Shown one piece after another: positions 7,156 to 25,683 of a stretch of DNA of 25,683 nt. The stretch's first letter is position 1; every line of letters starts with the position of its first letter. The notes beneath the pieces are model-generated. The model worked only from the letters and a program-made list of their open reading frames with translations. It was not told the DNA's origin and made no database searches. The position numbers were made by a program, and so were the translations under genes. This DNA comes from Syntrophomonadaceae bacterium (GTDB lineage Bacteria > Bacillota > Dethiobacteria > PWVN01), in NCBI GenBank assembly GCA_007136165.1, contig SLHK01000121.1, forward strand, positions 1 through 25,683. The letters are read 5' to 3'.

Positions 7156-8283
7156 TTAGAGTATGGACAACAAGATGCCGGCGGCGATGGCGGAACCGAT
7201 AACCCCCGCCACGTTGGGCCCCATGGCATGCATGAGCAGGAAGTTTTTTGGGTTGGCCTCCCGGCCTACGGTCTGGGATACCCGGGCGGCCATGGGAACG
7301 GCAGAGACCCCTGCCGAGCCTATCAGAGGGTTAACTTTGCCTCCCGAGAGTCTGTACATGATTTTACCCAGGATGACCCCTCCCGCCGTCCCCACGGCAA
7401 AGGCTGCCAGTCCCAGCACGATAATCTGGATGGTGGCCAGGGAAAGGAACATCTCCGCATTGGCTTTGCCTCCCACTGTCAGGCCCAGAAAGATAACTAC
7501 AATGTTATTGAGTTCGTTCTGCGCAGCCTTGCTCAAGCGCTCCGTAACTCCCGTCTCCCGCAGCAGGTTGCCGAACATGAGCATCCCCAGGAGGGGTACG
7601 GCTGCCGGCAAAAAGAGGCCGGTAATGATGATGACGGCGATGGGAAACAAAATTTTCTCCGTCTTGGAGACGGGCCTGAGCTGCTCCATTATTACTTCCC
7701 TTTCCTGCTTGGTGGTCAGGGCCTTCATGATGGGGGGTTGGATAATGGGCACCAGGGCCATATAGGAATAGGCGGCAATGGCTATGGACGGCAGCAGTTC
7801 AGGGGCAAGCCGGGAAGTTAGAAATATGGCCGTTGGGCCGTCGGCGCCGCCGATGATCCCGATGGAGCCGGCTTCTGCCGGAGAAAACCCCAACAGCAGG
7901 GCTCCCAGAAGGGTGGCAAAAATGCCGAACTGGGCTGCCGCCCCCAGCAGGAGAGTTTTGGGATTGGCGATCAGGGGCCCAAAATCCGTCAAAGCTCCCA
8001 CACCCAGGAAAATCAGGGGCGGATATATTCCCAGCTCGATTCCCAGGGCCAGGTAGTAAAAAAGTCCGCCTAGTTCTCCGGGGGTAGGGGGAGCCATAAG
8101 ATTGCCCAGGGGCAAATTGGCCAGTAGCATCCCGAAGCTTATGGGGATAAGCAGCAGGGGCTCATACTTTTTGACGATTCCCAAATACAGAAGAAAGCAG
8201 GCCAGGGCAATCATGATGGCATCCAGGTACGTTAAATTGGCATATCCCGTACTTTGGATAAATAAATGTATCTTATCAATCAC
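7156..8283 (-). CDS. oadB: Na+-translocating decarboxylase beta subunit (OadB/MmdB/GcdB family)
   Basis: [45 protein letters not shown] and [14 protein letters not shown] motifs. Confidence 0.95.
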
Positions 8284-8301
8284 TTGGATCTCTCCCTTAG
8301 G

Positions 8302-8700
8302 CTATTCGATGGTAATTAAAAGATCTTCTGTATTTACGCTGGCCCCTTTGCTTATATGGATATCTTTCACGGTGCCCGTAAAGGGTGAAGATATTTCGTT
8401 TTCCATTTTCATGGCTTCCAGTACCAGGAGGGTTTGCCCTTCACTGACTTTATCCCCTTTGGAAACCTTTATGTCCAGAACGACTCCCGGCATGGGAGCA
8501 GGCACTTTCTTCCCTTCTCCGCCTCCCTGGGCCGGGGCATCCTGGGGCTTTGCCTCCGGGGGAGCCTGGGGTTTAGGCGCCGGGGCAGGCGCAGGATTTT
8601 CCTGTTTAACGGCCGGAGCGGGGCTGGTACTTTCCGACCCCATTTCTTCGACGGTGACATCATAGGATTTGCCGTTGACGGTTACTCTAAAACTTTTCAT
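8302..8700 (-). CDS. Biotin carboxyl carrier subunit of Na+-pumping decarboxylase (MmdC/GcdC-like)
   Basis: EAMKMEN biotinylation motif, Ala/Pro-rich linker, N-terminal FRVTVNGKSYDV segment. Confidence 0.93.
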   Translation of the reverse strand: MKSFRVTVNGKSYDVTVEEMGSESTSPAPAVKQENPAPAPAPKPQAPPEAKPQDAPAQGGGEGKKVPAPMPGVVLDIKVSKGDKVSEGQTLLVLEAMKMENEISSPFTGTVKDIHISKGASVNTEDLLITIE

Positions 8701-9092
8701 ATTCTCTTCTCCCTTCTCTTCGAGCTGACGCTGTTCTTTAAGTCCATGTTTCTGGTTCGGCCATAATAGACCCAGGAGTTTGTATTTCCCACGGGGGTAA
8801 TACTCCTGATGGCCAGGCTGGGACGGGGTTTTTGCAAGTAAACCGAAAGGGCTGCCGTTATTGCCGCCATCAGTTCGTCTCTCTCCCCTTCATCCCCGGA
8901 CGTTTCCGGTTTTTGCGGCGCCGAAGGTTTTATCTCCCCGGCGGCCAGGGGCTGAGGCTTTGCGGGCTTGCTCCTTTTCTTGGAGAAAAAGCGGTCCATC
9001 AACACCAGCAGTACGTACAGGATGGAAAGAGCGACGAAAACACCGGCAAAACCAATCAACATTACTTCGAAGCCAAATGATAAGTCTACCAA
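8697..9092 (-). CDS. OadG/MmdD-family small membrane subunit of Na+-pumping decarboxylase
   Basis: Single N-terminal TM (IGFAGVFVALSILY), Pro-rich linker, ELMAAITAAL and W...GR C-terminal motifs. TTG start with AAGGAGG. Confidence 0.88.
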   Translation of the reverse strand: MVDLSFGFEVMLIGFAGVFVALSILYVLLVLMDRFFSKKRSKPAKPQPLAAGEIKPSAPQKPETSGDEGERDELMAAITAALSVYLQKPRPSLAIRSITPVGNTNSWVYYGRTRNMDLKNSVSSKRREKRI

Positions 9093-14180: not shown

Positions 14181-14256
14181 AGGGGAGTAGCTCAATTGGT
14201 AGAGTGGCGGTCTCCAAAACCGTTGGTTGCGGGTTCGAGTCCTGTCTCCCCTGCCA
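14181..14256 (+). tRNA. tRNA-Trp (anticodon CCA), encoded CCA end
   Basis: Cloverleaf: acceptor AGGGGAG/CTCCCCT, D-arm GCTC/GAGT, anticodon arm GCGGT-CTCCAAA-ACCGT, T-arm GCGGG-TTCGAGT-CCTGT, 3' GCCA. Confidence 0.97.
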
Positions 14257-14267
14257 GTAAAGAAATT

Positions 14268-14302
14268 AGGCTCCACAAGGGATTGTGGGGTTTTTTTCTT
14301 TT
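14268..14302 (+). terminator. Intrinsic terminator after tRNA-Trp
   Basis: CTCCACAA-GGGA-TTGTGGGG stem followed by TTTTTTTCTTTT. Confidence 0.8.
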
Positions 14303-14379
14303 GAAGGCCGCTTTTAATGGGGCAAATTCAGGTCTGCCCTTTCGGGTTGGCACATATGAATTATCAGGAGGTGGCCGCC

Positions 14380-14565
14380 GTGGACCTGGATTTTATAATC
14401 CCCCTATTGTTGATCCTGAAAGCAGGCGCTCTATGTGCCGCTGTAATCGGGATTGGCATTAAGTCCTTCAGAGAAAATACTTTAGAAAAAAGGGTTGGCA
14501 TCATGCTGGCCATGGCAGTGCTGGCCCTGGCCCTCCTGCTGGCTTCCAGGAGCTTCATCCCTTAA
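14380..14565 (+). CDS. Small hypothetical 2-TM membrane protein (61 aa)
   Basis: AGGAGGT RBS before in-frame GTG at 14380; two hydrophobic helices; fills the gap convergent with the Mrp operon. Confidence 0.65.
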   Translation: MDLDFIIPLLLILKAGALCAAVIGIGIKSFRENTLEKRVGIMLAMAVLALALLLASRSFIP

Positions 14566-14567
14566 GC

Positions 14568-16826
14568 CTACCTTACACCCAGAAGCAAAATTACCAGCAA
14601 AACCAACCAAACCACAACCAGGTCGAAATTATAGTTCATGGGGTTAATCATCTGGTAAAAAGGGTCTCCCTTGGTATCGTAATCCGCTTTGATAAAAGCT
14701 ACAAAGGTCCTGCGCATCAGGCGGTGCAGTTTTGCATCATAACAGGAAGCTAAGCGGCACCACCGGGAATATATTTTATCTTGTATTCCCACAGACAAGC
14801 GGGCCGCCGCCTGCCCTGCCCTGGTCAGGGTTACAGCATCAAAGTACGCCAGGCGCCGGGCCAGGGCTTTGAAAGGGATGCCGGATTGCACGTAGATGAC
14901 TTCAAACAGGTGGTCCAGGCCGCTGCCGATGCCGGTATACATTCTGGAGGCCTGCTTGAGAGCCACTTCCGTAAAGAAGCCGGCGGCTTTGCTTTCCCAG
15001 GCTGCCGTTCTGCTAAAAAGGGACGTAAACCAGGGCCCCGGTTTTACATAGGCCTTATCTACCCCTCTTTCCAGGGATGACCCCAGAAGGGTATACACCA
15101 GAACCGTTCCCCTGACAAGAGGTGTATACAGCAGGGACTCAATGCTGAGCCAGCGGGGGGGATGCCGGTAAAAGAGGCCGGTTTTACTAAAGAAAAGGTA
15201 AAAGATAACTCCCAGGGATAAGGCCGTACCAATGGCCAGCAGGTCGGGCCTGGCCCAAAAGTCCAGTTTTTCCAGATAGTTTACCCTGTAGGGGTCGAAT
15301 CCGAAACCTTCCGTTAAAGGAATAATGACACTGGTTAAAAGGAACTTGGGGAAGACTCCTGCAAGAATAACGGCGGCGGCAAAAAGCCCGAACACCAGTT
15401 TTTCCAACAGGGGTTCCGGCCCCACCTGCCCCCGGTCTTCCCTCTCCGGCCCAAAGAAGACGCCCAGGGTCAGTTTCAATATATAGCAGACGGTCAGGGC
15501 ACTGGTTATGACGAATATTTTTTCTGCATAGAGGAAAATCTGGCTGCCCTGATGGGCAGCTTCTTCCACGGCATGATGCAGCAGGGTTTTGCTGGCATAA
15601 CCGTTAAAGCCGGGGACGCCGGCAATCCCGCAGGCCGCCACCGCAAAACACAGGGACGTGACAGGAAACTTTCTCCACAGGCCTCCCAGGTGGTCCAGGT
15701 CCAGTTCATGGGTACGGGCATAGACGGCCCCCGCCATCATGAACATCCCGGCTTTGAAAAAGGCGTGGTTAAAGATGTGAAAGACCGTACCGGTAAATCC
15801 CATGGGCCCTTCCGGGCCCAGGTAGGCAGCACACCCGACCCCCATGAGAATATACCCCATTTGGCTGACACTGCTGTAGGCCAGTATCCTTTTGATGTTT
15901 GTCTGAAAGAGGGCGATGAACGCAGCCATGAACATGGTGGCTATTCCCGTCCACAGGATGACAAAACCCAAATTGCTGCTGGTACTTCCGAGAAAACCTC
16001 CGGTTTCCGGCGCGAAGGCCTGGGCGGCAACCCGCAGGATGCCGTAGGCTCCCGTCTTGATCATGATTCCCGACAGGAGGGCGCTGGCCGGCGAAGGGGC
16101 TACGGGGTGGGCTTTGGGAAGCCAGATGTGGACAGGGGCCATGCCGGCCTTAATGCCAAAGCCTAGAAGGAGGAATCCCGCTGTCAAGTAGCGCATATAT
16201 GCGGGAGCCGTCATGTCCTGAAACAGGGGTGCCAAAGAGACGCTGCCCGTGAAGGAATTGAGGAGCAATATTCCCGTAAGCAGGCTTAAGCCGCCCGCTA
16301 CTCCCAAAAAGAGATATAAGCGGCCGGCTTCCATGGCCTCTTCCGTTTCCGTATGCACCACCAGGGCATAGGATGCCAGGGACATGACTTCGAAGAAAAT
16401 AAAAAGGCTGAAGAGGTCTCCTGCAAGAAAAACCCCCAGGCAGCCCGCCTGGGTCAGGGAAAGAAAGGCGTAGTACCGGGGGCGGGCGTGTTCGTGCCCC
16501 ATGTAGGTTAAGGAGAAGAGGACGGCCAGGAACCATATGAAAGAAGATAAAAGGGTAAAGAAAGCCCCCAGGGGGCCGACGGAAAAATTCAGCCCCCAGC
16601 CCAAAAAACCGGGCAGAGCAAAAAAAGCCGCTTCCTCCCCCGCTTTAAGGTACAAAAGGGCGCTGAGAAAAAAGGTTATACCGGCAAAAAATACCGCCGT
16701 CAGATCCCGGGTGCTCTCTTTTCTCTTCTTTAAAAAGGGTACCAGAAAGGAAAAGGCAAGGGGCAGCAGGATAATAACGGGTGGTATTAGAGAAAATCCC
16801 GTGTCTTTTAGAAAATCCATATCCAC
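14568..16826 (-). CDS. Antiporter-like subunit 5 (MrpA/NuoL/HyfB-like) with extended lateral-helix region and terminal TM
   Basis: FFEVMS (TM5 Glu), GFGIKAG..PVHIWLPKAHP, GIMIKTG, HAFFKA and GYASKT motifs; 204-aa C-terminal tail ending in a hydrophobic helix. Confidence 0.9.
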   Translation of the reverse strand: MDMDFLKDTGFSLIPPVIILLPLAFSFLVPFLKKRKESTRDLTAVFFAGITFFLSALLYLKAGEEAAFFALPGFLGWGLNFSVGPLGAFFTLLSSFIWFLAVLFSLTYMGHEHARPRYYAFLSLTQAGCLGVFLAGDLFSLFIFFEVMSLASYALVVHTETEEAMEAGRLYLFLGVAGGLSLLTGILLLNSFTGSVSLAPLFQDMTAPAYMRYLTAGFLLLGFGIKAGMAPVHIWLPKAHPVAPSPASALLSGIMIKTGAYGILRVAAQAFAPETGGFLGSTSSNLGFVILWTGIATMFMAAFIALFQTNIKRILAYSSVSQMGYILMGVGCAAYLGPEGPMGFTGTVFHIFNHAFFKAGMFMMAGAVYARTHELDLDHLGGLWRKFPVTSLCFAVAACGIAGVPGFNGYASKTLLHHAVEEAAHQGSQIFLYAEKIFVITSALTVCYILKLTLGVFFGPEREDRGQVGPEPLLEKLVFGLFAAAVILAGVFPKFLLTSVIIPLTEGFGFDPYRVNYLEKLDFWARPDLLAIGTALSLGVIFYLFFSKTGLFYRHPPRWLSIESLLYTPLVRGTVLVYTLLGSSLERGVDKAYVKPGPWFTSLFSRTAAWESKAAGFFTEVALKQASRMYTGIGSGLDHLFEVIYVQSGIPFKALARRLAYFDAVTLTRAGQAAARLSVGIQDKIYSRWCRLASCYDAKLHRLMRRTFVAFIKADYDTKGDPFYQMINPMNYNFDLVVVWLVLLVILLLGVR

Positions 16827-16863
16827 CTCTCCTCTCCAAAAGAAATACCCGGCGGGAAGCCCG

Positions 16864-18387
16864 CTAAAAGAAAGCTTTTACTCCCGCTTTAACAATCTCC
16901 AGGGGCCAGTTTACTGCCAGCAGCCCAAAGGCACCGCAGCCTATTGTCAAAATCAGGATGGGCAGGGCTGTCTTCCAGGAACCCGCCTTGAAGTCCCCTT
17001 GCCCCTCTCCTCTCGCCGCGGCAGTTTGCCTGAAGGCTTCCTCCTCCTCCTGTCCGTCCCCGTGGCCGGCAGGTACGCCAAAGAAGGCCTGGATGGCGAT
17101 GGGAAGGTAATAGGCAGCATTTAAAAAGCTGCTCACCAGCAGTACCCCCACCAGGACGGGCATCCCTTCTTCCAGGGCACCGAGACTTAAGTACCACTTG
17201 CTGATGAATACATTAAAGGGCGGCATCCCCACGGCTGTCAGGGCTGCCGCGGAAAAGCACAGCATAACCCCGGGCATTTGGTGCCCCGCTCCCTTCATTT
17301 CGCTGATTTTTCGGGTCCCCATGCCCCTGATAACGGCACCGGCGCAAAGAAACAGGGTCCCCTTCATAAAAGCGTGGGCCATAATATGGTATACAGCCCC
17401 CGCCACGGCCGCCTCCTGGAGCAGGGATATTCCCAGAATAATGTAACCTACCTGGGCAATACCCGAATAAGCCAGGCGGCGAATCAGGTCATCCTGGACC
17501 AGGGCGATGGCAGACCCCAACAATATACTTAAGGAGGCCAGGTAAATCAATGGCTGGGCCCAACCCGCCCCGGCCAGGAAGGAAAAGCCGTATACGTCCC
17601 CAAAGACCCGCAGCATGCCGTAAGCCCCGGTTTTTAACATTATGGCGGAGGAAATGACGGCAGCGGGCAGGGGTGCCCGGGCATAAGCATCGGGCATCCA
17701 GAAGTGCAGGGGAACGAGGGCGGCTTTGGTGCCAAAAGCCACCATGAAGCCGCAAAAAGCCAGCAAAGCCAGGGGGGAGGCCTCCGTAACCAAGCCTCCT
17801 TGACCCAGGGCCAGGCTTCCCGTTTCTCTTAAAATAATGACGGCGGATAAAAAGAGGGCTACCCCGGCCGTAATGGTCATAAAGAGGAACTTTAAGCCCG
17901 CCTTCAGGGAGGCCTCCGTCTGATGGTGAATAACCAGGACGAAAAACATCAGGGACATGAACTCGAAGAAGAGGTAGAAGGTGAAGAAGTCGCCGGCCAG
18001 GGCCACCCCGTAACATCCCCCCAGGGCCAGGAGCATGCAGGCAAAAAAACGGTCGGCTTTCTTGTCACCTTTCATGTACTGCTGGGCATAGATGCTGACC
18101 ACGAAACCGAAGAAGACAAAAAGCAGGAGCATATAGAAACCCAGGATATCCACCCGGTAGGAAAGCCCCAGGGGCGGCAGCAAATCGAAGGTTTTCTGCA
18201 GCTCCTCCCCCCGGCGAAGGGGGCCGTAGAGGAAGGCGGTTATAATCAACGGTATTAGGGTGGAAACTGTAATCAACCTTTCCTTAAGCCCTATGCTGCT
18301 TTTGCGTAATAGATAGAGGGCTCCGCCCCCCAGCAGGGGGGTTAAGACGATAAAAGAGATCAAGATGGTGGTCAGGGTCGGGTGCAT
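16864..18387 (-). CDS. mrpD: Antiporter-like subunit 4 (MrpD family)
   Basis: FFEFMS, GTKAALVPLHFWMPDAY, IMLKTG, HAFMKG and FISKW motifs. Start moved to ATG 18387 (GGAGG RBS, no overlap with the upstream gene). Confidence 0.9.
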   Translation of the reverse strand: MHPTLTTILISFIVLTPLLGGGALYLLRKSSIGLKERLITVSTLIPLIITAFLYGPLRRGEELQKTFDLLPPLGLSYRVDILGFYMLLLFVFFGFVVSIYAQQYMKGDKKADRFFACMLLALGGCYGVALAGDFFTFYLFFEFMSLMFFVLVIHHQTEASLKAGLKFLFMTITAGVALFLSAVIILRETGSLALGQGGLVTEASPLALLAFCGFMVAFGTKAALVPLHFWMPDAYARAPLPAAVISSAIMLKTGAYGMLRVFGDVYGFSFLAGAGWAQPLIYLASLSILLGSAIALVQDDLIRRLAYSGIAQVGYIILGISLLQEAAVAGAVYHIMAHAFMKGTLFLCAGAVIRGMGTRKISEMKGAGHQMPGVMLCFSAAALTAVGMPPFNVFISKWYLSLGALEEGMPVLVGVLLVSSFLNAAYYLPIAIQAFFGVPAGHGDGQEEEEAFRQTAAARGEGQGDFKAGSWKTALPILILTIGCGAFGLLAVNWPLEIVKAGVKAFF

Positions 18388-18406
18388 TATCTTTCCCTCC
18401 GCTTCC

Positions 18407-19879
18407 TCAAAATACGTGGGCAATAACCTTTTCCGCCAGAGGTATGGAAAGCTCATGGGCAAAGAGGCCCAGGGCAAAGCAGCAGGCCGTCAGGATTATG
18501 GTTGGTATGAGCATGGCGGGTGAAGTTTCCCAACCCCCGGGCCTTGTAAAGGTGCCCTGCCGAAAATAAGCATTAACCATAACAGGCAGGTAATAGGCGG
18601 CGTTTAAAAGGGCGCTGGCCAGGATCACAAAGGCAAAGACCGTCTTGCCCCCTCCCAGGCTGCCCTGGATTAAATAATACTTGCTGATAAAAGCGTTTAG
18701 AGGCAGGATGCCGATGAGCCCCAGGCCCGCCAGGCTGAAGCAGGCCATGGTCAGGGGCAGGCGCCGTCCGACTCCGTACAATTCTTCCAAACGGCTTTTC
18801 CCTGTCTCCTTGAGGATTTGCCCGGCGCAGAAGAACAGGGTAATTTTTAAAAAGGCATGGTTGATCAAATGGAGGATTCCTCCCGTCAAACCGGCTGGTG
18901 TTAAGAGAAGCGCCCCCAGAATGATGTATCCCAACTGGCCTATGGTGGAGTAGGCCAACCTTAGTTTTAATACACTTTGTCGCAGGGCCAGAATGGAGCC
19001 CAGGAGGATGGAGAGGGAAACCAGGACGGCCAGAATGTCTTGCAGGCCCAAAGACTCGATGACCGCCGGATTGTAGATGAAATAAAGAACCCGGATTACG
19101 CCGAAGGCCCCGCTTTTGACCACGGCAACGGCGTGCAGCAGGGCGCTGACGGGGGCCGGGGCCACCATGGCGCCGGGAAGCCAGGCATGCAGGGGGATGA
19201 CAGCCGCCTTGACGGCAAAGCCTGCAACCAGCAGGAGGAAGGCTCCCGCCAGCATTGTACGGTTCCCTTCCAGGAAGGGGGCCAGGCTTCCCCCCGGCTC
19301 AAAAGCCGCCCCCGGCACCAGGCTTTGCAGGGCAAAAAAGGCTGCCAGGATGAGGCCGCCCCCGGAAAGGCAGTAGATGATATAGCGGGTCCCCGATTTA
19401 AAGGCTTCGGTACTGCCGGAGTGAATTACCAGGGGATAGGTACACAGGGTCAAATACTCAAAAAAGACGTAAAGGCTGAACAGGTTCCCGGAAAAAGCCA
19501 CTCCCATGGTGGCGCTCATGGACAGGATGTAATAAAAGAAGTATCTTCCCTGACCCCCTTCCCCCTTCATGTATCCCAGGGAGTAAATGATGGCAAAAAT
19601 CCACAGGCTTCCGGCTACCAGGGCGAAGGCCATGCTCAGAGGGTCCGCCCTCAAGGTTAACTCCAGATTGGGTAAAAGGCGAAGGGGCGGTGACTGGGGG
19701 AGCTGCCCCTGCATTACCGGTGGAAGCAGGGATAACACCACGATTAAGTTCAGGCTAACCGTAAGCAGGGCAGCGACAGCCCTTTCCCTGTATTTATCTT
19801 CGGGAAGCACTAAAATGAGGAGGGCCCCCGCCAGGGGAATCAGAACAGCCAGGGCAGGCAAATAAGTATTGACAGCCAT
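18407..19879 (-). CDS. mrpD: Antiporter-like subunit 3 (MrpD family, AMVAP..LLHAVAVVK subtype)
   Basis: FFEYLT, AVKAAVIPLHAWLPGAMVAP, LLHAVAVVKSG, HAFLKI and FISKY motifs. Confidence 0.9.
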   Translation of the reverse strand: MAVNTYLPALAVLIPLAGALLILVLPEDKYRERAVAALLTVSLNLIVVLSLLPPVMQGQLPQSPPLRLLPNLELTLRADPLSMAFALVAGSLWIFAIIYSLGYMKGEGGQGRYFFYYILSMSATMGVAFSGNLFSLYVFFEYLTLCTYPLVIHSGSTEAFKSGTRYIIYCLSGGGLILAAFFALQSLVPGAAFEPGGSLAPFLEGNRTMLAGAFLLLVAGFAVKAAVIPLHAWLPGAMVAPAPVSALLHAVAVVKSGAFGVIRVLYFIYNPAVIESLGLQDILAVLVSLSILLGSILALRQSVLKLRLAYSTIGQLGYIILGALLLTPAGLTGGILHLINHAFLKITLFFCAGQILKETGKSRLEELYGVGRRLPLTMACFSLAGLGLIGILPLNAFISKYYLIQGSLGGGKTVFAFVILASALLNAAYYLPVMVNAYFRQGTFTRPGGWETSPAMLIPTIILTACCFALGLFAHELSIPLAEKVIAHVF

Positions 19880-19901
19880 CCGTTAAAATCCCCCTTCCTG
19901 C

Positions 19902-21380
19902 TTAAAAATGGTTAATCATGGTTCCGGCAATAAGGCGGGCCATCTCCAGGGGCCAGTTTGCGGGAGCCAGGGCAAAAACAAAGGTTCCCGCCGCCAGGAC
20001 TATTATGGGCGCCAGCATAACGGGGGGTGCTTCCAGGCTGTTTCCCCCCGTCTCTCCGGGTGGGGCAAAAAAGGCCGCCACCACAATAGGTAAATAATAA
20101 GCTGCATTCAAAAGACTGCTGATAATCAACAGGAAGACATATGCCGGCGCCCCCGCATCCAGGGCACCCAGGCTCAACAGCAGTTTGCTTAAAAAGCCGT
20201 TAAAGGGAGGAATACCCACCATGCTCAGGGCGGCCAGGGTGAAGCAGGCCATGGTCAGGGGCATCTTTAGGCCTATGCCCCCCAGATGGCTGATACGGCG
20301 CTTGCCCGTCTGCAAGATTATGGCTCCGGCGCAGAGAAAAAGGCAGCCCTTCATCATGGCATGGGCGAATATATGGAAAAGGGCTCCCGTTAAGGCCACC
20401 TCGGTCAGAAGGGACAGCCCCAGGTAAATGTAGCCGACCTGGGCGATGGTGGAGTAGGCCAGGCGCCTTTTTAAGTCATCCTGCCTTAAAGCCAGGGCGG
20501 AGCCCAAAAGGATGGTTATCACCGCCAGGGCCAGGGTTATCCTGTGCCACCCGGCCTGCTGGATCAAACCTATACTGAAGACCTCATAAAAAACCCGGAT
20601 GAGGCCGAAGACCCCGATTTTTACCATGACTCCCGACAGGAGAGCGCTGACGGGAGCCGGGGCTGCCGGGTGGGCATCGGGAAGCCATACATGGAGGGGA
20701 AAGGCCCCGGCCTTGATGCCAAAACCCGTAAGAAAACCCAAAAAGATGGCCAGGGTGAAGGGAGTTGCATCCGTAAGCAGGCCGCTGCTTCCGAAAGCCA
20801 GGTCTCCCGCCTCAAAGTAAAGGAGTATGGTGCTGAAAAAGACGGCAAACCCCGCTGCCATGGCCATATAGATGTATTTGCCCCCCGCAAACATGGCCGG
20901 GGGGTCTTCTTCGTGAATGACTAAAACATAAGAGGTGACGGCCATCAACTCAAAAAAGAGCAGCAGCCCCAGCATATCCCCCGCCATGACTATTCCCAGG
21001 CTAGCTCCCAGGGCTGCCAGCAGGAAGCCATAATAACGGTCAAGGGCGTGGTTATGGGCCATGTATGCCCGGGAGTAGATGACGGCCAGCACCCACAGGA
21101 AAGAAATCAGCAGTGCCATGGAGTAACCCAGATGGTCCACCCTGAAATGAATGGCCAGGGGAAAGGAAAAAAAGGTGTAAGCGGAAACTACCGGCCCTCC
21201 CTCTCTCAGGGCGGGATAAAGGGACAGGATTGTCAAGAAAACCAGTATTGAGGAAACCAGGGCAAACCCCTCTCCCCACCTCCTGTTCCGGCGCACCAGG
21301 AAAAATGCGGCTATGGAAGCAAGGAAGACAAAGGCTAAAATTATTACGGGAGCATCGGCCAGGGCCACCAAACTCAACAC
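19902..21380 (-). CDS. mrpD: Antiporter-like subunit 2 (MrpD family)
   Basis: FFELMA, GIKAGAFPLHVWLPDAHP, VMVKIG, DLKRRLAYST and GFLSKL motifs. Confidence 0.9.
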   Translation of the reverse strand: MLSLVALADAPVIILAFVFLASIAAFFLVRRNRRWGEGFALVSSILVFLTILSLYPALREGGPVVSAYTFFSFPLAIHFRVDHLGYSMALLISFLWVLAVIYSRAYMAHNHALDRYYGFLLAALGASLGIVMAGDMLGLLLFFELMAVTSYVLVIHEEDPPAMFAGGKYIYMAMAAGFAVFFSTILLYFEAGDLAFGSSGLLTDATPFTLAIFLGFLTGFGIKAGAFPLHVWLPDAHPAAPAPVSALLSGVMVKIGVFGLIRVFYEVFSIGLIQQAGWHRITLALAVITILLGSALALRQDDLKRRLAYSTIAQVGYIYLGLSLLTEVALTGALFHIFAHAMMKGCLFLCAGAIILQTGKRRISHLGGIGLKMPLTMACFTLAALSMVGIPPFNGFLSKLLLSLGALDAGAPAYVFLLIISSLLNAAYYLPIVVAAFFAPPGETGGNSLEAPPVMLAPIIVLAAGTFVFALAPANWPLEMARLIAGTMINHF

Positions 21381-21414
21381 CTCGATTCCACCGCCGAAGC
21401 GGCATTCTGTTAGG

Positions 21415-21723
21415 TTAATGAGGAAATTCTTTTTTCCTCAGGGAAGCCAAGGTCAAGGTGACGGCCACAACGGCGGAGAATATAACCGTTGTTTCCAGGA
21501 AGGTATCGAAGGCCCGGTAGTTCAGCAATATGTTGCCCACCAGGTTGTAGCCCCCACTCTCTTCCACCCCTTTCTCCACATACCTCTGGCTGACGTAGTT
21601 GTTGGTGGGGTTCTGGGGGTCACCGTACAGGGGCAGCTCCATAACGGCCAGGAGCAGCAGGTAGTTAACGCTTATTACCAGGATCAGGACGACCAGATAA
21701 AAGGCCGCTTTATTACGCCGCAT
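21415..21723 (-). CDS. MbhE-like subunit (separately encoded MrpA C-terminal segment)
   Basis: NLVGNILLNYRAFDTFLET matches the MrpA/MbhE N.V..IL.D(F/Y)R..DT..E motif. Confidence 0.85.
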   Translation of the reverse strand: MRRNKAAFYLVVLILVISVNYLLLLAVMELPLYGDPQNPTNNYVSQRYVEKGVEESGGYNLVGNILLNYRAFDTFLETTVIFSAVVAVTLTLASLRKKEFPH

Positions 21724-21965
21724 CAGTGGGGCCTCCTTCCCACCCTGCTGACCACTGCCACCATGAGAATGGTGGTGGCTATACCTACCGCCGCTTCCGT
21801 AATGGCAATGTCAGGGGCATTGAGTTTCTGCCATACCAGGGCCATGACAGCGCTGTAAACGCCAAAGATAATGATAATGTAGAGCAAATCCTTAAAAATA
21901 AAGACGGAGAAGGTTACCAGGAGCAGGACCAGGAGCAGCAAAAACAAGACAGGATCCAGCGGCAT
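21723..21965 (-). CDS. DUF4040 / MbhD-like subunit (separately encoded MrpA segment)
   Basis: LNAPDIAITEAAVG motif, 3 TM. ATG 21965 preferred (GGGGTG RBS); GTG 21974 is possible. Confidence 0.87.
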   Translation of the reverse strand: MPLDPVLFLLLLVLLLVTFSVFIFKDLLYIIIIFGVYSAVMALVWQKLNAPDIAITEAAVGIATTILMVAVVSRVGRRPH

Positions 21966-21970
21966 AGGCG

Positions 21971-22306
21971 TCACCCCCGGCCTTTCCTGGAGTAATTGTC
22001 TTCATACCAGGTAGCGGGAGCCACTGCATCTTTCCGGTCATAAGCTGTCTTGGCAATTAAGTGGGTCATAACGGGGTTGATGGTGGCAATCAGGCCGCCG
22101 ATTAACACCACTTTGACGCCACTGGTAAAATCGGGCACGATAAAAAGTATGGCAAAAAGAATCAACCCGGCCCCCAGGGTATCGCATTTACCCATGGCGT
22201 GCATGCGGGTAAAGATATCAGGCAGGCGAAGCATTCCCACAGCTCCCACCATCAGGAAGAAGAATCCCCAGAGAAGGCTTAAGGCAATCACGATATCGGT
22301 GAACAC
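21971..22306 (-). CDS. mrpG: Mrp antiporter subunit G
   Basis: GMLRLPDIFTRMHAMGKCDTLG and NPVMTHLIAK motifs. Confidence 0.93.
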   Translation of the reverse strand: MFTDIVIALSLLWGFFFLMVGAVGMLRLPDIFTRMHAMGKCDTLGAGLILFAILFIVPDFTSGVKVVLIGGLIATINPVMTHLIAKTAYDRKDAVAPATWYEDNYSRKGRG

Positions 22307-22321
22307 GGGAGATCCCCCCTT

Positions 22322-22594
22322 TTACAGTTTTCCTTCTTCCAGGAGACGCAGCACTCCCAGGGTGGCCACAAAGGCCCCCAGGACAAAAACCAGGGCTACA
22401 TCCAGGTAAAGGTTGATCTCTGCATACGGGGCGCTCAGCAAGACCAGCATGACTATCAGGGAGACAGCATAGTTGATAGCCACCACCCGGTCGGCAGCTG
22501 AAGGGCCAATAAATGACCTGATGAGGACCAGGATGAGGATAAAAACCAGTCCATACCGGAGAAAGGTTAACAGAGATTCAATCACTTTTCCCAC
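22322..22594 (-). CDS. mrpF: Mrp antiporter subunit F
   Basis: GPSAADRVVA and YLDVAL motifs; 3 TM. Confidence 0.92.
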   Translation of the reverse strand: MGKVIESLLTFLRYGLVFILILVLIRSFIGPSAADRVVAINYAVSLIVMLVLLSAPYAEINLYLDVALVFVLGAFVATLGVLRLLEEGKL

Positions 22595-23093
22595 TTCCCT
22601 CCAATTTTTTCATCTGGTGATACAAAGGCCAGTGCTGGACCGCCTCGGCATTCTCCCGGGTGAAGCAGTGGACCACCAGGCGGTCTTCTTCACATTCCAC
22701 CGTTATGGTACCGGGGGTCAAGGTAATGGAATTGAGAAACAAAGCCTTGGAAAGGTCTTTTTCCAGGCCCAACCTGTAGGTGACAAAGCCCGGGCTGATG
22801 GGCATACGGGGATGAAGGACCAGGTAGGCCACATAAACGTTGGCTTTAACCACTTCAATCCCCAGGGAGACCAGATATACCAGAAGCCGGAGGGCCTGCC
22901 CCGGGGTAAAACGGGTCCCTCCTTCCCGGATGAAAATAACATCTGCCCAAAAGGTCATCAAGAGGAAGGAAATTACTGTCCCCATGAGAATATGCTGCCA
23001 GTCAAAGCTGGCGGATATCAAGAGCCAAAAAACCAGCAATAGAAAGGATAAAAAGACAAACCCCACCGGATCCTTTTTAATGTGCCTGAACAC
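22578..23093 (-). CDS. mrpE: Mrp antiporter subunit E
   Basis: EVVKANVYVA, PISPGFV, NSITLTPGTIT and VVHC motifs. GTG 23093 preferred (RBS present) over TTG 23126. Confidence 0.92.
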   Translation of the reverse strand: MFRHIKKDPVGFVFLSFLLLVFWLLISASFDWQHILMGTVISFLLMTFWADVIFIREGGTRFTPGQALRLLVYLVSLGIEVVKANVYVAYLVLHPRMPISPGFVTYRLGLEKDLSKALFLNSITLTPGTITVECEEDRLVVHCFTRENAEAVQHWPLYHQMKKLEGSGKSD

Positions 23094-23122
23094 TCCATCA
23101 CCCCCCGGTTTTTTATCTTTTG

Positions 23123-24619
23123 TCAAGGAAAGAAAACGGGTTCCACGGCCCCGCTGATAAGACTAAGGATTGGGGCAGGGAACAAACCCAGGTACAAAAT
23201 CCCGCAAGCCAGGAGAACAACCGGCGCCAACAGGGGCAAGGGTATTCGGTCCATGACCACCTTTTCCTTCTGATTTCCGGTAAAGTAAGCCTGCCATATT
23301 ATGGGTAAGTAATACATGGCGTTTAAGAGGCCGCTTAGGACAATCAGGGCAACCAGGCCCCGGCTGCCTGCCTCGATACTTCCCATGGCCAGGGCATATT
23401 TGGTGATAAAGCCGGCAAAAATGGGAATTCCCACCATCGATAAGGCAGCTACGGTGAAGGAAGCCATGGTGACGGGCATAATTCGCCCTAAACCTGAAAA
23501 CAGGGTAACATTTCTCTTCCCCGTTTGAAAAAGGATATTGCCGGCGGCCATGAAGAGGCAAACCTTCATGAAGGCATGAACTACCACATGCATCAAGGCC
23601 GCCTTTATACCCCAGGGCGTACCCAGGCTTAAGCCCAAAAAGATATACCCCACCTGGGATACGGTGGAATAGGCCAGGCGCCTTTTTAAGTCTTTTTGTG
23701 TAAAAGCAAAAATGGAACCGGCCACAATAGCCATAGCCGACATGCCTGTGATCAGGCCGGCAATATTCATTTCCGCCAGGATGCCGGGGCCAAAAACACC
23801 GTAGAGAATTTTAAAGAAGGCCATGATGTAGATTTTGACCACCAGTCCGGACAGCAGGGCGCTGGAAGGGAAAGGCGCTGAGGAGTGGGCATCGGGGAGC
23901 CAGATGTGGAGAGGGAAAAGGGCTGCCTTGAGGCTGAATCCCACCAGCAAAAAACCCATGGTGGTCCAGATGACAAAAGGAAAGCTGTCCCGAGTACCTT
24001 CCAGTTCAATTGCTATAAAGGGAATGTTGAGGTTTCCTGTTATGGTATATAGGAATCCAATGGCAAACACGATAAAGCCCGATCCTATGGTGGCCAGCAG
24101 AAGGTATTTAAGGGATGCTTCTGTGGCCTCTTTGGTGCCTTTGGCAATGATGAGGGCACAGGAAGCCAGGCCTACAATCTCCAGGAACACATAAAGGTTG
24201 AAAATATCATTTGTAACCACCATTCCCGTCATGCCCGTCATTAACAGGAGGTATGCGGTATAATACCAACCTGCTTTTTGATCCGGGATTTCTCTCTCCA
24301 GGCTGTTCAAACTGTAGATGGCTATTAAAAAACAAAACCCCGTTATCAAGGCTATCATCAGGGCTGCCAGGAGGTTAATGTGGAGCTCTATGCCCCAGGG
24401 AGGCTCAAAGCCGCCCAAATATATGCTGTAACTGCCCCCTCTATGTACGTCGTATAGCAGAAAAAGGGAAAAGAAAAAACTGAACCCTGTAACCACCGCT
24501 ACAATGGGTCCGCACAATGACCTCTTCCACCGGGCGAAGATGGGGAGCAGAAATGCAATTACCAGAGAAAAAATGATGATTACCATGGGAATTCTGTCAG
24601 TAAGCAAGGCTCCTGTCAC
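23123..24619 (-). CDS. mrpD: Antiporter-like subunit 1 (MrpD)
   Basis: DIFNLYVFLEI, LKAALFPLHIWLPDAHS, LVVKI, DLKRRLAYST and GFITKY motifs; GTGA overlap with mrpC. Confidence 0.93.
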   Translation of the reverse strand: MTGALLTDRIPMVIIIFSLVIAFLLPIFARWKRSLCGPIVAVVTGFSFFFSLFLLYDVHRGGSYSIYLGGFEPPWGIELHINLLAALMIALITGFCFLIAIYSLNSLEREIPDQKAGWYYTAYLLLMTGMTGMVVTNDIFNLYVFLEIVGLASCALIIAKGTKEATEASLKYLLLATIGSGFIVFAIGFLYTITGNLNIPFIAIELEGTRDSFPFVIWTTMGFLLVGFSLKAALFPLHIWLPDAHSSAPFPSSALLSGLVVKIYIMAFFKILYGVFGPGILAEMNIAGLITGMSAMAIVAGSIFAFTQKDLKRRLAYSTVSQVGYIFLGLSLGTPWGIKAALMHVVVHAFMKVCLFMAAGNILFQTGKRNVTLFSGLGRIMPVTMASFTVAALSMVGIPIFAGFITKYALAMGSIEAGSRGLVALIVLSGLLNAMYYLPIIWQAYFTGNQKEKVVMDRIPLPLLAPVVLLACGILYLGLFPAPILSLISGAVEPVFFP

Positions 24620-24984
24620 CTCATCTTCATAAGCTCTGAAACATGGACAGTTCCATAGAAGCGATACAGGCTGACAATCATGGCCAGGGCAAAAGCCGTG
24701 ACACTAAAGCTAACCACGATACCGGTGAGAATCAGGGCCTGGGGCAAGGGGTTCACATACAGGACACCGCCTGTAGCAGGGTTGACAATGGGCGGGGCTC
24801 CTCCGGAGATGTTGCCGACGGCAATAAAAAAGAGAAAGATGGCTGTTTCCATGACATTTAAACCTATTACTTTCTTAATCAGGTTTGGTTGGGTCAAGAC
24901 GATTAAGCATCCCATACTGAATAAGAGAATGGAAACAAAGTAAGGGAAATTGGCCAGCAGCATGAACACGTCCAGCTCTCTCAC
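24616..24984 (-). CDS. mrpC: Mrp antiporter subunit C (NuoK-like)
   Basis: NLIKKVIGL and NPLPQALILTGIVV motifs. Confidence 0.94.
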   Translation of the reverse strand: MRELDVFMLLANFPYFVSILLFSMGCLIVLTQPNLIKKVIGLNVMETAIFLFFIAVGNISGGAPPIVNPATGGVLYVNPLPQALILTGIVVSFSVTAFALAMIVSLYRFYGTVHVSELMKMR

Positions 24985-25373
24985 CTTCCATCCTCCTCTA
25001 CCAGCAGATAGTACATGGTAACCAGGGAACTGGCTACCAGGAGCCCGATGGCTAAACTCATAAGGGAAATGAGGCCGACACTGAAAAGCTCCCCCGGCGT
25101 CCCGTAGCCTTCTTTGGGCGGCAAAAAGAATTTAATTCCTTCGACGGCACCGCCTATGCCGATGAAGACAATTGCCAGGTGCTGGGGAAGCCTCTTGGAG
25201 CCCAGGTTAACACCAAATATGAGAATATAAAGCACCATGCCCAACCCCAGCACTATTCCCCCGGCAAAACCTCCCCCCGGGGACAGGTGGCCGTGAAATA
25301 TCACATAAAAGGCATAAACCTGTATGAAGAGAAGCACATACCGAAAAACGATCCTCACGACGAAATCCTTCAT
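24981..25373 (-). CDS. mrpB: Mrp antiporter subunit B (MnhB domain)
   Basis: YVIFHGHLSPGGGFAGG motif; first gene of the operon. Confidence 0.92.
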   Translation of the reverse strand: MKDFVVRIVFRYVLLFIQVYAFYVIFHGHLSPGGGFAGGIVLGLGMVLYILIFGVNLGSKRLPQHLAIVFIGIGGAVEGIKFFLPPKEGYGTPGELFSVGLISLMSLAIGLLVASSLVTMYYLLVEEDGR

Positions 25374-25461
25374 AAAGGTATACCCCGCTTTGCATCGGTT
25401 TCTTAAGTAAAAAAGCCTGATAACACTGTATTCCCCCAGTTCTCTTAAATCTCCTTCCAGC

Positions 25462-25479
25462 TTGTGAAAGTTATAACAT
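25462..25479. promoter_or_regulatory. Rex-like operator overlapping a putative extended -10 (TGtTATAAC, minus strand) of the Mrp operon
   Basis: TTGTGAA-AGTT-ATAACAT has 2 mismatches to TTGT(G/T)AA-N4-TT(A/C)ACAA. Confidence 0.4.
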
Positions 25480-25618
25480 TAAAATTATTCAGAAGTATCT
25501 TGTTATTTTTATCTTATATGGAGCAATCTGAAGGTTTTGGGACTGTTTATATAGAAATAATGAATATACCCTGAGTTTCCATAGATTCAGGCCAATTAAA
25601 ATTTTTAGGAGGATTCTC

Positions 25619-25683
25619 ATGCTAAAATTTTATTGTTTTCCCACGTGAACTACCTGCAGAAAAGCGAAAGCGTGGCTTTCAGA
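25619..25683 (+). CDS. ArsC/Spx-family protein, 5' part only, with in-frame UGA (probable selenocysteine, UxxC)
   Basis: AGGAGG RBS (25607-12), ATG 25619; reads MLKFYCFPT-UGA-TTCRKAKAWLS, matching the family N-terminus Y..P.CxxCRKAKxWL. Confidence 0.8.

Follow-up and report, generated by a model that had tools for sequence, protein, structure and literature searches.

Group 3 clusters of Mrp antiporters have an irregular gene order and an extra mrpD (PMC5703873, PMC8415708), as in Aphanothece halophytica (Ah-mrp, mrpCD1D2EFGAB), whose Na+/H+ antiporter activity was shown in E. coli, and in Microbacterium sp. TS-1 (mrpFGBCDDAE; Ito et al. 2017, PMC5703873). Both encode three antiporter-like subunits (APLS; Pfam PF00361, Proton_antipo_M), namely D, D and A. 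Here we describe a twelve-gene mrp operon with five APLS on a contig of a Syntrophomonadaceae bacterium (SLHK01000121.1; the whole analysed stretch, 25,683 nt, is called the window). Like the Group 3 clusters, it has a non-canonical order (B-C-D-E-F-G-MbhD-MbhE-D-D-D-L), more than one MrpD-type gene, all Mrp subunit types and no redox gene. It differs from them in APLS number, which reaches seven in its relatives, in a split MrpA, in a lateral-helix linker of over twice the length, and in an Asn at the position of MrpF Asp35. The operon is an enlarged Group 3 Mrp with a doubled clamp and not a new type of machine. An original prediction, made by a model from the DNA of the window alone, had referred to split-MrpA clusters with about three D copies in haloarchaea and some bacteria; Group 3 Mrp with two MrpD plus MrpA were already known, one of them assayed (PMC5703873).

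Other relatives of the operon share different parts of it. Group 1 Mrp of Anoxybacillus flavithermus and Bacillus pseudofirmus (6z16, 7qru) has the same subunit families, supplies fold matches for the L-like model, and shares an equivalent of MrpA E706, the acidic pair at the DTLLE motif and the MrpG proline; it has two APLS and MrpA as one polypeptide, whereas the operon has five and MrpA as three (L, MbhD, MbhE), with MrpC His37/His40 and MrpF Asp35 not retained. The membrane-bound hydrogenase (MBH), membrane-bound sulfane reductase (MBS) and stand-alone Mrp of Pyrococcus furiosus (6cfw, 6u8y; PMC8415708) share the split MrpA C-terminus (MbhD, MbhE) and a B-C-D segment that equals mbhF-G-H, and the MrpC coupling site of the operon has Glu, as in MbsG. 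In contrast to the operon, for which no such genes were found, both MBH and MBS possess a redox module, hydrogenase or sulfane reductase (homologues of MbhM/NuoH and NuoB, C, D and I), and they have one or two APLS.

APLS number one to three per complex and exceptionally four (PMC7419157). In the literature that we searched, the only earlier case of four is that of the '2M' and 'green' variants of complex I, the '2M' variants having an extra NuoM (Chadwick et al. 2018, as cited in PMC7419157), and we found no description there of Mrp clusters or complexes with at least five; the Dethiobacter genome paper cites just an 11-gene mrp locus (PMC5609068). The complex I variants resemble the operon in having APLS added to an otherwise conserved arm, but they are redox-driven, have complete Q and N modules and contain four APLS, whereas the operon has five and no redox module.

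Five old channel paralogues in one operon

The window is the whole of contig C170 in a 1.24-Mb metagenome-assembled genome (MAG; 231 contigs, 75.6% complete). Twelve open reading frames (ORFs) occupy positions 14568-25373 of the minus strand with intergenic gaps of -17 to +37 nt, and Pfam, with scores that all far exceed the family cut-offs, assigns them the order MrpB-C-D1-E-F-G-MbhD-MbhE-D2-D3-D4-L (Table 1). All Mrp subunit types, MrpA to MrpG, are encoded together, and L, MbhD and MbhE supply all parts of the split MrpA. NCBIfam offers no specific family for these proteins: MrpG alone passes a cut-off (TIGR01300), and the antiporter subunit B matches of the MrpB-like protein all fall below theirs. 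The D2, D3 and D4 genes have gaps of 19-37 nt and their own ribosome-binding sites, and a sequence scan inside the operon gave no convincing terminator and no promoter above noise. Since the genes are closely spaced and no convincing terminator interrupts them, we predict that they are co-expressed. The operon is no one-off misassembly, because contigs of a soda-lake DNA run, possibly the window's source sample, cover it with near-identical sequence.

All five large subunits look intact as proton channels by their key residues. Aligned to E. coli K-12 NuoL, NuoM and NuoN, each keeps the Glu of transmembrane helix (TM) 5 and the Lys of TM7, TM8, TM11 and TM12, and the same holds for the genome's second cluster, with its five PF00361 genes. 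The L-like subunit has the MrpD-like Lys in TM8, unlike E. coli NuoL (T260; His at 254), and is without an equivalent of NuoL D400. D1 has MbsH as its best solved relative (6u8y_H, E 1.7e-77). Translation of D4 most likely starts at the ATG at 18387, preceded by the ribosome-binding site GGAGGG, and would yield 507 aa; a 537-aa frame from a TTG, overlapping D3, is less likely. These results bear out what the original prediction had said of the locus: a tightly packed twelve-gene operon of this content, Mrp-like with a split MrpA, whose five large subunits keep the TM5 Glu and the TM7, TM8 and TM12 Lys, ending at a convergent gene (an 82-aa ORF) and a tRNA (tRNA-Trp).

Judging from their phylogeny, D1, D2, D3, D4 and L are separate paralogues of long standing whose orthologues occur across the class. 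In the tree each falls into a separate, well-supported orthologue clade shared with other families; that of D1 also holds Da of the second cluster, and that of D3 includes the second D of three-copy clusters. Monophyly of D2+D3+D4, a group chosen after the first tree had been inspected, was rejected by the approximately unbiased (AU) test (delta lnL 532, p 1e-4), and tree and test together rule out recent tandem duplication as the origin of D2-D4. D2, D3 and D4 always co-occurred in the loci examined. This stability and co-occurrence resemble the fixed positions of NuoL, NuoM and NuoN rather than swappable isoforms.

The window cluster, whose layout we call type I, belongs to a graded series. 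Related loci were found with an alignment of D2 orthologues, the D2 sequence alone having given none. The smallest form is B-C-D1-E-F-G-MbhD-MbhE alone (one APLS); others add D and L (three APLS), D-D-D-L (five; the window, G105, G012 and G015) or reach seven (G018, G024 and G042). By their record titles the relatives are soda-lake 'Syntrophomonadaceae' MAGs, serpentinite (CROMO) MAGs and Dethiobacter sp.; a seven-copy cluster occurs in a Dethiobacter sp. MAG, which is not the type strain of Dethiobacter alkaliphilus. In a survey of 31 genomes from the same class, with coordinates counted by hand, 28 had PF00361 genes and seven had a locus with at least five copies, two of these seven with seven copies. 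Among 301 genomes sampled from the phylum, close D4 orthologues turned up solely in this class and in one further family, and the window sequence is present in soda-lake and alkali-sediment metagenomes of several studies. The rarity that the original prediction implied does not hold, given these counts and the second five-copy cluster of the same genome; loci with at least five copies are common in the class, and the literature searched yielded no description of them.

That second cluster accounts for the other five of the genome's ten PF00361 genes and defines type II. Its twelve genes lie on one strand in the order E-F-G-MbhD-MbhE-B-C-Da-Db-X1-X2-L, across three contigs of which C212 and C22 are joined by an end overlap and C165 and C212 are ordered by gene content. 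X1, X2 and L each end in a long linker and a terminal TM, the linkers measuring 224, 108 and 121 aa. The cluster sits between rnfCDGEAB-moaC and apbE, and of 42 related type II loci that include the cluster start, 12 have rnfD upstream; partial rnf or apbE neighbours occur at other loci. This recurrent rnf/apbE synteny suggests a functional Rnf-Mrp unit for type II clusters. Smaller type II clusters, of three or four APLS, are widely distributed in Bacillota, Actinomycetota and some archaeal MAGs.

Neither search nor synteny points to a redox partner for the window operon. PF00146 (NuoH/MbhM) and PF00346 (NuoD) had no match in the MAG, which is 75.6% complete. Because of that incompleteness the search was repeated in four relatives with clusters of five to seven APLS (G012, G015, G018 and G024; 98-99% complete), where nothing exceeded the cut-off; a PF00146 match in an X-type subunit of G024 (19 bits, below cut-off) was set aside as noise. 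No energy-converting hydrogenase is reported for Dethiobacter alkaliphilus (PMC10376724). Together these results make a partner in the style of complex I or MBH unlikely, and the stand-alone status claimed by the original prediction plausible, although an unconventional partner is conceivable.

The lateral helix of the clamp subunit

The L-like subunit consists of a 14-TM antiporter core, TM15, an amphipathic lateral helix and a terminal TM16, according to its hydropathy profile and its AlphaFold2 (AF2) model. The model has a mean predicted local distance difference test (pLDDT) score of 83, with most of the core above 90. Its best fold matches are MrpA (9a6h_A, 6z16_A, 7qru_A), followed by NuoL and NdhF; the top Foldseek matches are MrpA and NuoL chains with 630-820 aligned columns.

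What sets this subunit apart is the linker between TM15 and TM16, which has 184-185 residues as against 80 in E. coli NuoL. The 80-residue linker of the E. coli clamp braces two subunits. All six type I clusters with three APLS have linkers of 78-79 aa, and those of clusters with at least five APLS measure 131-154 aa, compared with 184 in the window. These lengths are alignment-anchored counts, which replaced a noisy, crude hydropathy measure in which amphipathic stretches split the linker. AF2 predicts three nearly continuous helices in the linker (562-594, 596-648 and 652-715), so that about 150 residues are predicted helical and would span about 230 Å if extended. The linker also contains an internal repeat (577-612 and 629-664, an offset of 52 aa) that scores 48, compared with 24 ± 3.4 in shuffled sequences; none of 200 shuffles reached 48.

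According to a review, the length of the lateral helix tracks the number of APLS that it braces (PMC8165549). Within type I, linker length separates three-copy clusters from those with at least five copies. We rejected its use as a strict ruler: there is no linear scaling, and type II varies widely. In the '2M' variants of complex I, the lateral helix of NuoL is reportedly lengthened to match the extra NuoM.

Long clamps also occur in Actinomycetota MAGs, where seven type II loci with four APLS (L095, L096, L101, L105, L106, L109 and L117) encode clamp subunits of 850-975 aa. Raw hydropathy puts their linkers at 240-360 residues, and L101, the one locus counted by anchoring, gives 184; three-APLS relatives of these loci have linkers of about 110.

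A single arm weighed against other arrangements

We propose, at somewhat better than even confidence, that the operon encodes one stand-alone, Group 3-type Mrp (CPA3) cation/proton antiporter whose arm would have five channels and whose H+/Na+ ratio would be high. Linker length and repeat, paralogue identity and operon structure lead us to favour one long arm. We infer the single-complex assembly, as well as the subunit order, stoichiometry, direction of transport and ion. MrpB, C, E, F and G with MbhD and MbhE would form the Na+ (or K+) module. D1 would adjoin it, as MrpD does in Mrp and MbhH in MBH, and D2, D3 and D4 would extend the chain, its far end capped by the L-like subunit. From there the lateral helix of about 150 residues would run back along the four D subunits and TM16 would anchor near MbhD/MbhE, as in unsplit MrpA. 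With a full proton path in every one of the five subunits, a turnover might bring in as many as roughly five H+ for each cation expelled, a more electrogenic 'gear'. For an ordinary Mrp, roughly 2 H+/Na+ is assumed.

Such a gear would suit the pH of soda lakes, where the pH gradient is inverted and H+ uptake would be driven by the membrane potential alone. High external pH demands electrogenic antiport, with more H+ entering than Na+ leaving, to make use of that potential (PMC7419157). At a given potential, a higher H+/Na+ ratio would allow a more acidic cytoplasm and expulsion of Na+ against a steeper gradient. With assumed values of -150 mV, a pH gradient inverted by 1.5 units and a tenfold Na+ gradient, the driving force would gain about -60 mV with each added H+, making a 2:1 exchange uphill and a 4:1 or 5:1 exchange downhill.

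The small subunits keep some residues of the cation path and lack others. The path residues proposed for Mrp are MrpA E706 and D792/E796, MrpG P86, MrpF D35 and MrpC H37/H40 (PMC7419157). Here E60 of MbhD aligns with MbhD E69, which equals MrpA E706, and the MrpG-like subunit (best match 6z16_G) retains the Pro that breaks helix TM3 of MrpG, as well as the RxHA motif. In MbhE, the acidic pair of the motif NYRAFDTFLE aligns with DTLLE of MrpA (7qru_A), a motif that we take to be the D792/E796 exit site. N43 and E46 of the MrpC-like subunit, whose best solved relatives are MbsG (6u8y_G) and MbhG (6cfw_G), align with N34 and D37 of MbhG, and D35 of the MrpF-like subunit corresponds to MrpF D29 (alignment to 6cfw_B and 7qru_F).

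Several observations weigh against the single five-channel antiporter, or at least complicate it. Two concern the cation path: MrpC His37/His40 are replaced by T47 and F50, with the Glu one position earlier as in MbsG, and MrpF Asp35 (A. flavithermus numbering), reported as invariant and essential, is Asn41 here (window 22472-22474). Among 68 related F subunits, the motif-matching ones of loci L021-L120 from both cluster types, 64 have Asn and four Ser at this site, with the upstream Asp (D29) kept. The Asn in most F subunits and the missing MrpC histidines suggest that the ion path of the whole family may differ in detail from that of bacterial Group 1 Mrp. Others concern the clamp, as some related clusters of five and seven APLS have a linker of 131 aa, type II linkers with three APLS vary between 110 and 210 aa, and the tail of the L-like AF2 model is of low confidence (pLDDT 44-67). 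The operon is also accessory. In run X5, from another soda-lake study, positions 14565 and 25547 are linked on a 1.2-kb contig through 158 unrelated bases, so that exactly the operon and its leader are skipped; its flanks differ at 1 of 227 and 2 of 137 bases, and its depth is 9.4, compared with about 0-8 for operon-bearing pieces of the same run. A close strain thus lacks the operon, which is therefore dispensable and shows a presence/absence polymorphism among near-identical strains. On the supporting side, if thinly, one metatranscriptome library yielded seven pieces of 143-370 nt on the operon (depth 2-5, 99-100% identical), covering L, D3 and D1; its sample also holds operon DNA, and these contigs could be DNA carry-over.

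The gene arrangements of relatives raise the most substantial alternative, namely two machines, a minimal one-channel Mrp (B-C-D1-E-F-G-MbhD-MbhE) beside a separate D2-D3-D4-L tetramer with an activity of its own, for example as a cation/proton exchanger or leak valve. Core-only clusters exist in L023, L038 and L039. In G008 and G017 a D2-X-D3-D4 block and a one-APLS core lie on different contigs, the block having its own upstream gap and standing beside ORFs that, by size only, resemble mutS and miaB. In four Bacillota/'Syntrophomonadaceae' MAG loci (L046, L048, L049 and L050), an operon L-D3-D4-D2-L made up of APLS only, with a clamp subunit at either end (linkers of 132 and 154 aa), diverges from a one-APLS core. 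The separate blocks of G008 and G017, together with the core-only clusters, make sub-assemblies possible; moreover, the one-APLS Mrp of P. furiosus is functional in vivo (PMC8415708), and antiport has been reported for single MrpA-like proteins by themselves (PMC5703873). The twelve genes of the window, however, are contiguous, with gaps of at most 37 nt and no convincing internal terminator, and in most loci examined, G008 and G017 apart, the extra block adjoins the core. The 184-aa linker exceeds what three subunits would need at about 40 aa each, and TM16 of L has its homologous position at the Na+ module, because TM16 of unsplit MrpA runs covalently into the helices equivalent to MbhD/MbhE. 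We consider two machines unlikely on balance, if by no means far-fetched.

Less probable again, and in our view rather improbable, is that the arm is the ion-translocating half of a larger converter whose input (Rnf, a hydrogenase, a formate/CO dehydrogenase or a protein not yet recognized) is encoded elsewhere. Mrp modules are indeed part of MBH, MBS and related respiratory complexes, and the sequence-nearest structures are MBS for C and D1 and MBH for L, F, MbhD and MbhE, with bacterial Mrp nearest for MrpG. The rnf setting of the sister cluster, with synteny in at least 12 related loci, and the incompleteness of the MAG point the same way. Against these stand the absence of MbhM/NuoH-like and NuoD-like genes from the MAG and the four near-complete relatives and the Dethiobacter alkaliphilus report cited above (PMC10376724). 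The sole PF01058 (NuoB-family) match in the MAG, on C25 (L008:200-3423), belongs to an uptake [NiFe] hydrogenase of periplasmic type, as the small subunit in an operon with large subunit and cytochrome b that is unlinked to either Mrp cluster, and the flanks of the window cluster vary between relatives with no conserved redox neighbour. Interchangeable D modules, swapped by condition onto a shared Na+ module, were one of two options in the original prediction. Several paralogues with intact channels and copy numbers of one to seven among relatives would be in keeping with swapping, but D2, D3 and D4 form distinct orthologue groups of long standing and are always found in company, their closely spaced genes without internal promoter or terminator above noise argue for co-expression and not choice, and the long lateral helix implies that several subunits are braced simultaneously; we regard this option as very improbable. 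The other option, one long arm, gains indirect support from the linker (184 vs 78-80 aa), its 52-aa repeat and the fixed paralogue identities.

Genomic setting and biological meaning

The features of both clusters and the borders of the operon are collected in Table 1. Overlaps of 121 nt at its ends link the window to contigs C67 and C35, which extend its neighbourhood in both directions. The non-coding DNA ahead of the operon measures about 250 nt, and a simple sigma-70 scan of the leader gave no strong site; beyond lies a divergent ArsC-like gene that reaches onto C35. At the other end, a terminator-like hairpin (14268-14293) stands beside the tRNA gene. For the MrpE-like gene no ribosome-binding site was found ahead of the listed TTG.

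Table 1. Coordinates of the operon genes, their borders and the second cluster (window positions unless a contig is named; residues are those kept at the TM5 Glu and the TM7, TM8, TM11 and TM12 Lys).
Feature	Position	Strand	Basis	Residues
tRNA-Trp (CCA), past downstream border	14181..14256	+	ARAGORN	
Small hydrophobic convergent ORF, 82 aa, downstream border	14317..14565	+	ORF list; no Pfam match	
L-like subunit, 752 aa, MrpA N-terminal/NuoL equivalent	14568..16826	-	PF00361 215 bits	E146, K226, K257, K358, K413
L-like lateral-helix linker, residues about 550-733	14628..15179	-	between TM15 and TM16	
D4, 507 aa from ATG at 18387	16864..18387	-	PF00361 198 bits	E172, K251, K282, K372, K427 (numbering of the longer 537-aa frame)
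D3, 490 aa	18407..19879	-	PF00361 178 bits	E141, K224, K255, K345, K400
D2, 492 aa	19902..21380	-	PF00361 216 bits	E144, K223, K254, K344, K399
MbhE-like, 102 aa, MrpA C-terminal TM20-21	21415..21723	-	Pfam MbhE	
MbhD/DUF4040 subunit, 83 aa, MrpA C-terminal TM17-19	21723..21974	-	Pfam MbhD 54 bits	
MrpG/MbhC-like, 111 aa	21971..22306	-	Pfam PhaG_MnhG 85 bits; NCBIfam TIGR01300	
MrpF/MbhB-like, 90 aa	22322..22594	-	Pfam MrpF_PhaF	
MrpE/MbhA-like, 182 aa as listed, start uncertain	22578..23126	-	Pfam MNHE 115 bits, residues 28-163	
D1, 498 aa, MrpD/MbhH/MbsH equivalent, adjoins MrpC gene	23123..24619	-	PF00361 210 bits	E147, K231, K262, K352, K407
MrpC/NuoK/MbhG-like, 122 aa	24616..24984	-	Pfam Oxidored_q2 88.5 bits	
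MrpB/MbhF-like, 130 aa	24981..25373	-	Pfam MnhB 62 bits	
Operon leader, presumed promoter region	25374..25546	-	no ORF ahead of mrpB	
Second cluster	contigs C165 (L127:1345-8775), C212 (L006), C22 (L007:1-6090)	same strand	PF00361 x5	

The divergent gene has a feature of its own. Window positions 25619-25683, continued on C35 (L004:57-404), give a continuous 115-aa ArsC/Spx-family ORF if the TGA at 25646-25648 is read as selenocysteine. It begins MLKFYCFPT-U-TTC, with U at the first Cys position of a CxxC motif, and its C-terminal part by itself matches Pfam ArsC. Elsewhere in the window, at 7156-9092 on the minus strand and 5 kb from the operon, lie the OAD_beta, biotin-carrier and OAD_gamma genes of a Na+-translocating decarboxylase.

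The Na+-linked machinery of the organism includes this decarboxylase's beta subunit and two Rnf sets; an ATP synthase c subunit was not found in the MAG. The decarboxylase and the Rnf sets fit a sodium-based energy economy in which Mrp complexes would set cytoplasmic pH, and the operon fits the role of an optional 'extra gear' beside the Rnf-linked cluster.

A broader reading, which we put forward tentatively and hold a little short of even, is that all five APLS, and seven in some relatives, work in one antiporter. It would have the longest complex-I-type arm known, with a double-length lateral helix built by repeat, and the number of channels would set the H+/Na+ ratio in a 'geared' family (1, 3, 5, 7) tuned to inverted pH gradients. 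If so, a stand-alone antiporter with five to seven APLS would extend the known range. The homologous series of one, three, five and seven channels could then test whether one proton passes per channel per cycle, as well as long-range coupling along an arm without a redox module and the reach of the electrostatic coupling wave of complex I. Dethiobacter alkaliphilus, a cultured member of the class, may make the system experimentally reachable. For the organisms themselves, the higher H+/Na+ ratio would suggest an adaptation of low-energy anaerobes to the pH of soda lakes.

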